DNA of 64,000 bases from Escherichia phage LYE-01 (PQ303785.1), one strand, 5' to 3'; counted from the first letter of the stretch, positions 55,385-58,054 are shown. Notes: generated by a model from the letters alone, not told the origin. Program-made: numbers and translations.

Positions 55385-56413
55385 ATGTCATCAATACCTT
55401 GGATTGATAATGAGTTTGCATACCGTGCGCTAGCTCATTTACCTAAATTCACACAAGTAAATAATAGTTCAACTTTTAAATTACGGTTTAGATGCCCTGT
55501 TTGTGGAGATTCAAAAACCGACCAAAATAAAGCCCGTGGATGGTATTATGGCGATAATAATGAAGGAAATATTCATTGTTATAATTGCAACTATCATGCA
55601 CCAATCGGAATATATTTAAAGGAGTTTGAACCCGATTTATATCGTGAGTATATCTTTGAAATAAGAAAAGAAAAAGGTAAAAGTCGTCCAGTAGAAAAAC
55701 CTAAAGAACTTCCTAAACAACCTGAGAAGAAAATAATTAAATCTCTTCCGTCATGTATTAGATTAGATAAACTGGCGGAAGACCATCCAATTATAAAATA
55801 CGTAAAAGCTCGCTGTATTCCAAAGGACAAATGGAAATATCTTTGGTTTACAACCGAATGGCCTAAATTAGTTAATAGCATAGTACCAGGAACATACAAA
55901 AAGGAAATACCTGAGCCTCGTCTTGTTATTCCAATTTATAATGCTAATGGAAAAGCTGAGTCTTTTCAAGGACGTGCATTAAAGAAAGATGCTCCTCAAA
56001 AATATATCACCATCAAAGCTTATCCTGAGGCAACAAAAATCTATGGTGTTGAACGGATTAAAGACGGTGATGTATATGTTCTAGAAGGACCTATAGATTC
56101 GCTTTTTATTGAAAATGGTATAGCTATTACGGGCGGTCAATTAGACCTAGAAATTGTTCCATTTAAAGATAGACGTGTATGGGTTTTAGATAATGAACCT
56201 CGTCACCCTGACACTATTAAACGAATGACTAAATTAGTTGATGCAGGAGAAAGGGTTATGTTTTGGGATAAATCTCCCTGGAAATCAAAAGATGTTAATG
56301 ATATGATTAGAAAGGAAGGTGCAACCCCTGAACAAATTATGGAATATATGAAAAATAATATTGCCCAAGGGCTGATGGCTAAAATGCGGCTATCTAAATA
56401 TGCTAAGATTTAA
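55385..56413 (+). CDS. 61: DNA primase gp61
   Basis: 342 aa; N-terminal zinc ribbon CPVCGDS ... CYNC and TOPRIM-type core. Confidence 0.95.
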   Translation: MSSIPWIDNEFAYRALAHLPKFTQVNNSSTFKLRFRCPVCGDSKTDQNKARGWYYGDNNEGNIHCYNCNYHAPIGIYLKEFEPDLYREYIFEIRKEKGKSRPVEKPKELPKQPEKKIIKSLPSCIRLDKLAEDHPIIKYVKARCIPKDKWKYLWFTTEWPKLVNSIVPGTYKKEIPEPRLVIPIYNANGKAESFQGRALKKDAPQKYITIKAYPEATKIYGVERIKDGDVYVLEGPIDSLFIENGIAITGGQLDLEIVPFKDRRVWVLDNEPRHPDTIKRMTKLVDAGERVMFWDKSPWKSKDVNDMIRKEGATPEQIMEYMKNNIAQGLMAKMRLSKYAKI

Positions 56414-56610
56414 ATTAACCCAACCAAAGCAAATGCTAAATCTACGAATGTATCAAGAGTAATTACTGGAATACTAACGCCATGAGCAATAGCAACTGGC
56501 GATAAAACAAAATTCCAAAGTAAAATTCCTATCATAGCAGAAATAGTAAAAGCTATACGTTTTTTATTACCTTTGATGGCATTAACAAGTGCCATTAATT
56601 TTTGTACCAT
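56410..56610 (-). CDS. small membrane protein encoded on the minus strand
   Basis: 66 aa with two hydrophobic helices; strong SD AAGGAGG 7 nt upstream of ATG on the minus strand; stop overlaps the gene 61 stop; only convincing minus-strand gene in the window. Confidence 0.55.
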   Translation of the reverse strand: MVQKLMALVNAIKGNKKRIAFTISAMIGILLWNFVLSPVAIAHGVSIPVITLDTFVDLAFALVGLI

Positions 56611-56642
56611 GCGTCGTCCTCCTTTAAATTAAATATTTATCG

Positions 56643-56660
56643 CAAATTTTACAAAATTTG
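56643..56660. promoter_or_regulatory. perfect palindrome CAAATTTT-AC-AAAATTTG in divergent promoter region
   Basis: 8-2-8 inverted repeat abutting the -35 of the plus-strand promoter and lying upstream of the minus-strand gene. Confidence 0.4.
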
Positions 56661-56689
56661 TTTACTTTCTCAGCTTGCTGTGGTATTAT
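56660..56689 (+). promoter_or_regulatory. T4-type early promoter
   Basis: GTTTAC, 18 nt, TGGTATTAT upstream of ORF 56715. Confidence 0.55.
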
Positions 56690-56714
56690 AAAATAAACTG
56701 CTGAGGATAATATA

Positions 56715-57275
56715 ATGATTAATAAAATTGTACATGAAATGGCTTTAAACGGAGATTCATATAAAATATCTGCCGTAGTTGAAAATTTCATACTTAATAA
56801 AGTAAAAGAATATTTCACTGATTGTTCAGTTAGTTATCAAGAAAAAATGGTTTTAACCGACGATACTGAAAAATCAAATAATTTGTTTTGTTCGAATTTT
56901 ACCACTAAGAAGCGTACTAGACGGTTTGATATTGTTATTGCTCGTAATGGTAAAAAGCATATAATTGAAATCAAACACCAAGTTGGTGGAGGTACAGCTA
57001 TTGATTCGGTTGGAATATATTTAGAAGATAAAGATAAATTAAAAGAATACACAAAAACTGAAAATCCTGTGTCATTGATGATATTAGATTTTTTGCCATG
57101 CGGATATTATCCGCGTAATAAGTGGACAAAAAGAGAATCATTTACTGATAATCCAACCATCCAAGCAAGGTTTAATGAATATGCTAAATCACAAAACGTG
57201 TTAGTATTACTATCAAATACATATGATGAAGAATTATATAATTCGTTTTTTGCTGCAATAAATGAGAGAATATAA
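56715..57275 (+). CDS. PD-(D/E)xK nuclease-like protein translationally coupled to dam
   Basis: 186 aa; [20 protein letters not shown] fits the D ... (D/E)xK nuclease core; GAGGA SD; stop TAA overlaps the dam ATG (TAATG). Confidence 0.55.
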
Positions 57276-58054
57276 TGCTAGGAGCTATTGCGTATACAGG
57301 TAATAAACAATCATTATTACCTGAACTTAAGTCTCACTTTCCAAAATATGACAGATTCGTGGATTTATTTTGCGGAGGTTTATCAGTATCTTTGAATGTC
57401 GATGGTCCTGTATTGGCTAATGATATTCAAGAACCAATTATTGAAATGTATAAACGTCTTATTAGCGTGTCATGGGATGACGTTTTAAAAGTAATAAAGC
57501 AATACAAATTGTCAAAAACATCAAAAGAAGAGTTTTTGAAATTACGTGAAGATTATAATAAAACTAGAGATCCTCTTTTGCTTTATGTTCTTCATTTTCA
57601 TGGGTTTAGTAATATGATTCGCATAAACGACAAAGGAAATTTTACTACTCCATTTGGAAAAAGAACCATAAACAAAAATAGTGAAAAACGTTTTAATCAC
57701 TTTAAACAAAATTGTGATAAAATAATTTTTAGCTCATTGCATTTTAAAGATGTCAAAATTCTAGATGGCGATTTTGTATATGTGGATCCTCCGTATCTTA
57801 TAACAGTTGCTGATTATAATAAATTTTGGTCAGAAGACGAAGAAAAAGACCTTTTAAATCTTTTAGACTCTTTAAATGACAGAGGAATAAAATTTGGACT
57901 GTCGAATGTTTTAGAGCATCACGGAAAGGAAAACACTCTTCTTAAAGAATGGTCTAAAAAATATAATGTTAAGCATCTTAATAAAAAATACGTCTTTAAC
58001 ATATATCATTCCAAAGAAAAGAATGGAACTGACGAAGTATATATTTTTAATTAA
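57275..58054 (+). CDS. dam: DNA adenine methyltransferase Dam
   Basis: 259 aa with catalytic DPPY and SAM-binding FxGxG (FCGGLSV). Confidence 0.95.

Follow-up and report, generated by a model that had tools for sequence, protein, structure and literature searches.

Escherichia phage LYE-01 (PQ303785.1) is a T4-type phage of the genus Tequatrovirus, and the stretch of its DNA analysed here, referred to as the window, comprises 64,000 nucleotides (nt), to which all coordinates refer. Between gene 61, encoding DNA primase, and gene 56, encoding dCTPase, the window carries a variable cassette consisting of an early promoter, a nuclease-like gene and dam, the gene for a DNA adenine methyltransferase. 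The reading favoured here, at a probability of roughly 0.55, is that this cassette is a phage-borne type II restriction-modification-like pair, probably specific for GATC. The coordinates and motifs given in an initial annotation of the locus all proved correct when the sequence was read again. The features of the cassette are the following:

56627..58054, plus strand: variable cassette of 1,428 bp (early promoter, nuclease-like gene and dam), its limits taken from comparison with phage RB51
56643..56660, no strand: palindrome CAAATTTT-AC-AAAATTTG (8-2-8), abutting GTTTAC and made of two copies of the self-complementary AAATTT
56660..56689, plus strand: T4-early-type promoter found by promoter scan, with GTTTAC (-35, 56660-56665), a 17-nt spacer and TGn-TATTAT (extended -10, hexamer at 56684-56689)
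56704..56708, plus strand: Shine-Dalgarno sequence of the nuclease-like gene, GAGGA
56715..57275, plus strand: nuclease-like gene of 186 amino acids (aa), PHROG 8706, annotated 'hypothetical'
56928..56975, plus strand: codons of the putative catalytic core, D72 (56928-56930), E85 (56967-56969) and K87 (56973-56975), followed by H88, Q89 and G93-T-A-I-D-S98
57275..58054, plus strand: dam, 259 aa, a T4-type DNA adenine (GATC) methyltransferase with a DPPY motif

A PD-(D/E)xK nuclease core had been proposed for the 186-aa protein from its sequence, and the predicted fold agrees with this proposal, while the suggested D...ExK residues are conserved. An AlphaFold2 model of the protein (predicted local distance difference test score 80.7, predicted template modelling score 0.79) has its core elements in the order helix, three strands, helix, strand, as in PD-(D/E)xK enzymes. 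The modelled strands at residues 66-77 and 80-88 form a beta-hairpin bearing D72 and E85-x-K87, and the register of this hairpin would place D72 opposite E85 in the canonical active-site arrangement. In a nine-sequence alignment reaching down to 29% identity, E23 in helix 1, D72, E85, K87, H88, Q89 and the segment G93-S98 (GTAIDS) are invariant. When the model is compared with the Protein Data Bank (PDB) by Foldseek, the matches are all PD-(D/E)xK nucleases, with generic ones ranked first, and the whole catalytic domain of the predicted model is structurally similar to EcoRI/MunI-like restriction endonucleases. Furthermore, the pairwise ratio of nonsynonymous to synonymous substitution rates (dN/dS) among five Tequatrovirus alleles of this open reading frame (ORF) is 0.03-0.10, the same range as for primase and Dam.

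The first sequence searches returned PHROG 8706 ('unknown function') together with weak Pfam matches to DpnII and BanI. For three members of the family, Pfam DpnII is the best match, over the same core region (E = 8.3e-5, 2.4e-3 and 2.5e-3), and the REase_II models of PADLOC are likewise the top matches for three members (E = 5.3e-5, 2.5e-4 and 4e-3). The highest DpnII score is 22.5 bits (protein P0009, E = 8.3e-5) against a gathering threshold of 23 for the DpnII family (PF04556), and the window protein itself scores 17.6 bits, indicating remote similarity of the core rather than family membership. The likeness to restriction-modification systems that the initial annotation had suggested is borne out by matches to type II restriction enzymes (MunI in structure; the DpnII and REase_II profiles in sequence), whereas the MutH-Dam pair it had offered as an alternative is not, as MutH, Sau3AI, Vsr and DpnI-type enzymes were matched in no search, including those of Pfam, NCBIfam and PADLOC. 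The family itself is small. Relatives at 49-63% identity, few in number, came from a database search; when 1.8 billion cluster representatives were searched with a profile, two distant relatives were gained, 225 and 227 aa long, and a repeat database search with the nine-member profile yielded no additional relatives. As far as found by these searches, the family appears tiny and confined to T4-like phages. In an RB49-like phage, Dam is preceded by an ORF of 143 aa, and comparison by hhalign gave no sign that this ORF is related to the family. Full-text literature searches returned no description of the 186-aa protein, nor of a restriction partner for T-even Dam.

The second gene of the cassette is a canonical T-even methylase. 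GATC specificity of the T4 and T2 Dam enzymes is established biochemistry. The window Dam matches the Pfam D12 class (E = 1e-50) and TIGR00571 dam (E = 1.2e-69), shows few substitutions relative to T4 Dam (dN about 0.01; dN/dS of Dam 0-0.08), and is matched by the PADLOC 'orphan methyltransferase' model with E = 3.9e-182. The stop codon of the nuclease-like gene (TAA, 57273-57275) and the start codon of dam (ATG, 57275-57277) overlap by one base, as TAATG; this overlap, noted before as a coupling of the two genes, is present, and the coupling is conserved far beyond the window phage. In every context recovered, a D12-class methylase gene directly follows the nuclease homologue, the two genes abutting or overlapping. 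Eight independent contexts and two genomic loci preserve this pairing, among them other Tequatroviruses, five metagenomic lineages (three divergent T4-like contigs and two distant relatives) and Klebsiella phage KPV15 (Jiaodavirus), whose nuclease-Dam pair is located elsewhere in the genome, between denB and ndd. All partner methylases are of the T4-Dam type and 53-72% identical to the window Dam, with K11, F111, S112, R116, P126-G128 and DPPY invariant. The locus therefore has the make-up of a restriction-modification system: a methyltransferase with a defined target, adjacent to and inherited together with a gene whose product has the predicted fold and residues of an endonuclease. Among the plasmid-borne Dam homologues examined, the neighbouring gene encoded an enzyme of FokI or AlwI type or a second methylase, in no case DpnII.

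At the locus of the KPV15 pair, its relative Klebsiella phage KP179 (492-2792) carries a 210-aa PD-(D/E)xK-like gene with weak Hjc and Cas4 matches. Its reading frame overlaps with that of a second D12 methylase, for which the annotation is MjaIII-like, and Dam comes next. To judge from its sequence, the arrangement may be a second phage-borne nuclease-methylase system. As KPV15 and KP179 hold different nuclease-methylase pairs, such pairs recur at that site.

Comparison across related phages reveals that the cassette is polymorphic. Matches to the junction region of the window come from 503 phage records, which fall into three genotype classes:

Class A, nuclease and Dam: about 145-154 records, such as T2, HP3, G28 and SG1
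Class B, Dam only with a T4-type junction: 35 records, such as T4
Class C, neither gene (order 61, minus-strand ORF, 56, soc): about 320 records, such as RB51, RB5 and PST

Accordingly, about a third of T4-type phages carry both nuclease and Dam, and about two thirds of Tequatroviruses are without the whole cassette, which is missing from them as a block. Dam at 90% identity or more is found in 181 records, in comparison to 189 for the sum of classes A and B (154 + 35). The closeness of these two figures makes the counts roughly consistent with the absence of a nuclease-only genotype. Two independent deletions within the cassette can be defined in window coordinates:

56643..57191, no strand: segment of 549 bp missing in T4-type genomes, from alignment to T4, with CAAA microhomology at both breakpoints
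56706..57076, no strand: segment of 371 bp missing in phage KarlGJung (Bas37), an independent deletion

With these 549 bp, T4-type genomes have lost codons 1-159 of the nuclease gene as well as the early promoter and the palindrome. The initial annotation had tentatively regarded the window genes as an insertion relative to T4; this is incorrect, because the final ~80 bp of the nuclease gene still directly precede dam in T4, and it is T4 that carries a deletion. In Bas37, nuclease residues 1-121 are removed and a 61-aa remnant is left (Bas37 record 1247-1486), with the early promoter and Dam kept. The T2 nuclease allele encodes 181 aa, as a one-base loss in a T-run alters its last residues, and the T4 remnant has the same T-run. 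In comparing T2 with T4, Miner and Hattman (1988) reportedly described a 536-bp 'insertion' that lies 5' of the T2 dam gene and is without known homology. The loss of the nuclease gene from T4 suggests that its 'orphan' Dam is what remains of a phage-borne restriction-modification pair. The initial annotation had also allowed that both of its ORFs might be present and already characterised between 61 and dam in T4. The minus-strand ORF is indeed present there, unannotated in RefSeq, while the nuclease gene is absent, and neither ORF was found characterised in the searchable literature.

A T4 record of 1984 (X01416; 613-641) marks a 'potential promoter P(E) 17.40' upstream of dam, and this element straddles the deletion junction (window 56643/57192). 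Its -35 lies on one side of the junction and its -10 within the remnant of the nuclease gene; if functional, it was created by the deletion.

Upstream of the nuclease-like gene, the early promoter shares its layout, GTTTAC...TGnTAtAAT, with the sequence directly upstream of the homologue in KPV15 and three metagenomic cassettes (L004, L006, L007 and L010). The perfect 8-2-8 palindrome reported against the -35 in a divergent intergenic region of about 100 bp is indeed there, and the region measures 104 bp. Its description as operator-like is not supported. Alleles of 8-2-8, 7-3-7 and single-copy form coexist with an intact nuclease gene; T2, Sf25 and S2_01 have the single copy, T2 thereby being without one arm, and no counterpart of the palindrome is found upstream of the four divergent homologues just named. 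Perfect palindromes with arms of at least 8 and loops of at most 4 number 24 in the window, against a rough composition-based estimate of about 10, and this palindrome is not more than chance in such A+T-rich DNA. It also differs from a C-box-like operator in being variable, in being missing from the divergent cassettes and in standing in a cassette without a controller gene. T4 early promoters have an A/T-rich upstream element. From its sequence, the palindrome is best described as a doubled AAATTT tract, variable among phages, that takes the UP-element position of this promoter, and not as a conserved operator. The sequences CTCAGC (56670-56675) and GCTGAG (56700-56705) could pair across the -10 and cover part of the ribosome-binding site of the nuclease gene, and similar inverted repeats surround the -10 in L006, L007 and L004. 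As a hairpin masking the ribosome-binding site, the window pair is no better than shuffled sequence (z = -1.3) and was rejected.

The genes and signals flanking the cassette, or lying on the other strand, are the following:

55385..56413, plus strand: gene 61, DNA primase of 342 aa, from the ORF list; left backbone neighbour, outside the cassette
56410..56610, minus strand: ORF of 66 aa for a small membrane protein, PHROG 2024, RB32ORF030w / RB69ORF029w family
56611..56714, between divergent ORFs: intergenic region of 104 bp
56618..56625, minus strand: Shine-Dalgarno sequence of the minus-strand ORF, AAAGGAGG, read from the sequence
56634..56641, minus strand: late-promoter-like GATAAATA, which agrees with T4 TATAAATA at 7 of 8 positions (a 7/8 match) and lies 23 nt before the ATG
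58100..58633, plus strand: ORF of gene 56, dCTPase, with the gp56 ATG at about 58116
58716..58961, plus strand: soc

The initial annotation had joined the minus-strand ORF, the palindrome and the nuclease-dam genes into one module of three parts. This grouping is rejected, as the minus-strand ORF belongs to the conserved backbone and occurs in phages with neither cassette nor palindrome. It is intact in T4, T2, RB51, PST, HP3 and Sf25, and the RB phages annotate it (RB32ORF030w, 'similar to RB69ORF029w'). Homologues at 29% identity occupy the same convergent position after gene 61 in the distant T4-like contigs L007 and L010, and W32, N33, P38, G44, P48 and T51 are invariant. The product of gene 61 in the window is nearly identical to T4 gp61 (primase dN/dS 0.01-0.13), and the minus-strand ORF converges on it, their stop codons overlapping within a common TTAA. 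With a dN/dS of 0.08-0.30 and a PHROG 2024 match of E = 1.9e-30 (PHROG gives no function), this ORF resembles the 186-aa ORF in that low dN/dS and an own PHROG family place each beyond a chance reading frame. The earlier view of 56410..56610 as the lone convincing minus-strand gene, with a strong Shine-Dalgarno sequence and convergent on the gene 61 stop, is upheld; among the other minus-strand ORFs of at least 60 aa with an ATG start in the window, none is gene-like, and they are read as antisense artefacts. Its product had been called a two-helix membrane protein, of which the membrane-type character stands (a basic N-terminus and hydrophobic helices), while the number of helices may be one or two. 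The ORF, encoding a small membrane protein, is part of the conserved backbone and independent of the cassette.

In class C phages such as RB51, ATAAATA stands 22 nt upstream of the ATG of the minus-strand ORF, in different flanking sequence. The presence of ATAAATA 22-23 nt upstream with or without the cassette suggests a late promoter, and the ORF is probably a late gene, its putative promoter being read from the 7/8 match. No perfect TATAAATA is present on the minus strand of the window. Seven perfect TATAAATA late-promoter octamers occur in the window, all on the plus strand, and one of them, at 58678, precedes soc.

When the window is compared with the class C backbone (RB51 order 61 / minus-strand ORF / 56), the right limit of the cassette falls exactly at the dam stop codon, and the cassette ends read AATTAAA...TTTAATTAA. 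By eye, the termini AATTAAA (56627-56633) and TTTAATT-AA (58046-58054) form a 7-bp inverted match, which may be chance in A+T-rich DNA. Further to the right, gene 56 and soc are separated in the window by an 82-bp spacer (58633-58716), whereas in T4 the homing-endonuclease gene segF lies between them. Elsewhere in the window, a cluster of ten tRNA genes at 4745-5572 comprises Gln, Leu, Gly, Pro, Ser, Thr, Met(CAT), Tyr, Asn and Arg; T4 has eight tRNA genes, and Tyr and Asn would be the extra ones in the window. Among the records used, RefSeq NC_041919.1 (phage HP3, T4-like, 168 kb, with T4 gene order) bears the taxonomy 'Rosemountvirus', which looks like a misassignment.

Taken as a restriction-modification-like pair, the cassette would work as follows. 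The early promoter at 56660-56689 would drive a single bicistronic mRNA. Its first gene would encode a small 186-aa PD-(D/E)xK endonuclease of the EcoRI/MunI structural class, with the active site E23-D72-E85-x-K87, and its second gene, translationally coupled through TAATG, would encode the GATC adenine methylase Dam. The nuclease would most likely cut GATC without N6-methyladenine, and Dam, together with the glucosyl-hydroxymethylcytosine of the phage, would keep the phage's own DNA immune. Because enterobacterial host DNA is already Dam-methylated, the likely targets would be Dam-unmethylated DNA in the infected cell, such as that of competing phages, plasmids or Dam-poor hosts. The nuclease half is dispensable and has been lost repeatedly, by 549 bp between CAAA repeats in T4 and by 371 bp in Bas37, with each loss leaving Dam as an apparent orphan methylase.

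Several points weigh against this reading. The observations concern gene structure, predicted fold, conserved residues, purifying selection, the pairing with Dam and the classes of presence and absence, and from these we infer nuclease activity, GATC specificity, methylation sensitivity and biological target. The AlphaFold2 model rested on just six sequences. All profile matches of the family lie below curated thresholds, and the DpnII alignment spans profile positions ~143-233 of 278, about a third. Comparison with EcoRI by hhalign gives a probability of 0.2%, which is not significant, and sequence searches of the PDB with the protein and with the nine-member profile returned no match at E up to 10. 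A selective benefit is hard to discern, in that Dam+ enterobacterial hosts offer no obvious target to a GATC enzyme blocked by Dam methylation and phage DNA is already hypermodified. In addition, none of the 256 tetramers is as depleted in the window as GATC (69 occurrences where 198.6 are expected, ratio 0.35; the palindrome next in line, TCGA, stands at 0.65), and this depletion was rejected as evidence for the cassette: the ratio is equally low in RB51 (0.29 over 1-50000), which has neither Dam nor nuclease, and in T4 (0.36 over 20000-50000). Since the same depletion occurs without the cassette, it is a trait of the lineage.

Of the alternatives, the least unlikely is an active PD-(D/E)xK nuclease whose specificity is unrelated to GATC or Dam methylation, directed instead at cytosine-containing host DNA or at DNA structures, with the operon kept by common descent. 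The best Foldseek matches are non-restriction enzymes (VC1899, Card1/Can2, Bax1, Hef/Mus81 and McrC), the DpnII matches are sub-threshold, and the KPV15/KP179 cassette adjoins denB (endonuclease IV), in nuclease-rich surroundings, all of which would suit such an enzyme. However, the tight pairing with Dam persists at two loci and among lineages that share only 29-43% identity, the record counts do not indicate a nuclease-only genotype, and the sole family-level matches are to type II restriction enzymes, including the GATC family. A further, rather improbable reading is that the nuclease cuts GATC containing glucosyl-hydroxymethylcytosine when N6-methyladenine is missing, making the cassette a weapon of T-even phages against T-even phages in mixed infection. 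Phages with nuclease and Dam would then destroy the Dam-less relatives (~320 records), or convert them by recombination, and T4-like phages that have lost the nuclease would keep Dam as immunity. This would account for the three classes of genotype, for the strength of purifying selection on a T4 Dam regarded as 'non-essential', and for the depletion of GATC even in hypermodified phages with neither gene.

The remaining alternatives have lower probabilities. A reversed, DpnI-like logic, by which the nuclease cuts Dam-methylated, cytosine-containing GATC, Dam makes host or foreign DNA cleavable, and phage DNA escapes through glucosyl-hydroxymethylcytosine, is quite improbable. It would supply an abundant target in the Dam-methylated host chromosome and a reason for an early methylase, and hypermodification genes (gene 42, a-gt and b-gt) are present in related genomes. 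Yet the protein is not similar to the DpnI family and lacks a winged-helix methyl-reader domain, its matches are to DpnII-type, methylation-blocked enzymes, and nuclease-less T4-type phages keep Dam under strong purifying selection, which a protective role fits better. About as improbable is a DNA-binding partner or regulator that might alter the site preference or level of Dam without being a nuclease. T2 has the gene and T4 is without it, T2 Dam is reported to methylate more than T4 Dam, and translational coupling suggests matched stoichiometry; against this, the full tetrad E23/D72/E85/K87 is invariant, where loss would be expected of a non-catalytic protein, and T4 Dam is fully active alone. 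Least probable of all is a MutH-like nickase acting with Dam in strand discrimination, repair or recombination. Nicking at GATC coupled to Dam is known in E. coli, and the PD-(D/E)xK motif occurs in MutH as well, but the MutH/Sau3AI families remain unmatched in Pfam, NCBIfam and PADLOC, and no MutS or MutL partner is encoded nearby.

The restriction-modification-like reading matters in that T2 and T4 are founding model organisms, in which the purpose of T-even Dam has never been satisfyingly explained, and reference libraries file T4 Dam as an orphan. If the 186-aa protein is a Dam-controlled endonuclease, T-even Dam would be the modification half of a phage-borne restriction system that is broken in T4, and a new small family of restriction enzymes would be defined. 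Restriction by a lytic phage against its competitors would then be directly testable with common phages, namely T2 with the gene, T4 with the deletion and the cassette-less RB51. There is also a bearing on therapeutic Tequatrovirus phages such as HP3, which carry the gene annotated just as 'hypothetical'.

Among the closest known systems is the DpnII/MboI type (DpnM and DpnII, PF04556), in which a Dam-family GATC methylase also lies beside a PD-(D/E)xK endonuclease and whose DpnII profile gives the best Pfam matches to the core of the phage protein. The DpnII and MboI systems carry two D12 methylases side by side, and KP179 likewise has two adjacent D12 methylases. Unlike DpnII, the phage protein has 186 aa against the 278 positions of the profile, is without the N-terminal half and scores below the cut-off. 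The phage cassette also places the nuclease first, and its carrier is a lytic phage with hypermodified DNA rather than a bacterium. In predicted structure, the protein resembles the MunI/EcoRI type IIP class and is of similar size (the MunI chain has 200 residues), though there is no significant sequence or profile similarity to either enzyme. By eye, the phage sequence E-I-K-H-Q...G-T-A-I-D-S resembles E111-A-K-H-Q...G-N-A-I-E-R of EcoRI, a likeness of sequence only that hhalign does not support. The phage residues T94, D97 and S98 differ at the positions with which EcoRI reads AATT, and a different target sequence is therefore expected.

MutH-Dam shares the PD-(D/E)xK motif and the association with a GATC methylase, while there is no family or fold match and the mismatch-repair partners are not encoded nearby. 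The homing endonucleases of T-even phages (seg, mob) are also optional nuclease genes that are polymorphic among close T-even phages, segF being an example; they differ in having GIY-YIG or HNH folds, in lacking a methylase partner and in spreading by cutting the cognate empty site, and nothing at the window cassette indicates homing. Unlike the orphan Dam of T4, the window Dam is paired with a nuclease gene that is conserved upstream of it. Chlorella virus encodes a GATC restriction-modification pair of its own, R.CviAI / M.CviAI, in which a lytic virus has its own GATC endonuclease, blocked by adenine methylation, together with the matching methylase. The Chlorella virus infects a eukaryotic alga, and unmethylated host DNA is its known target, whereas enterobacterial DNA is already Dam-methylated. 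The nuclease family of the window cassette is uncharacterised, and the kind of system, a type II restriction-modification pair, is a known one, found in viruses too.

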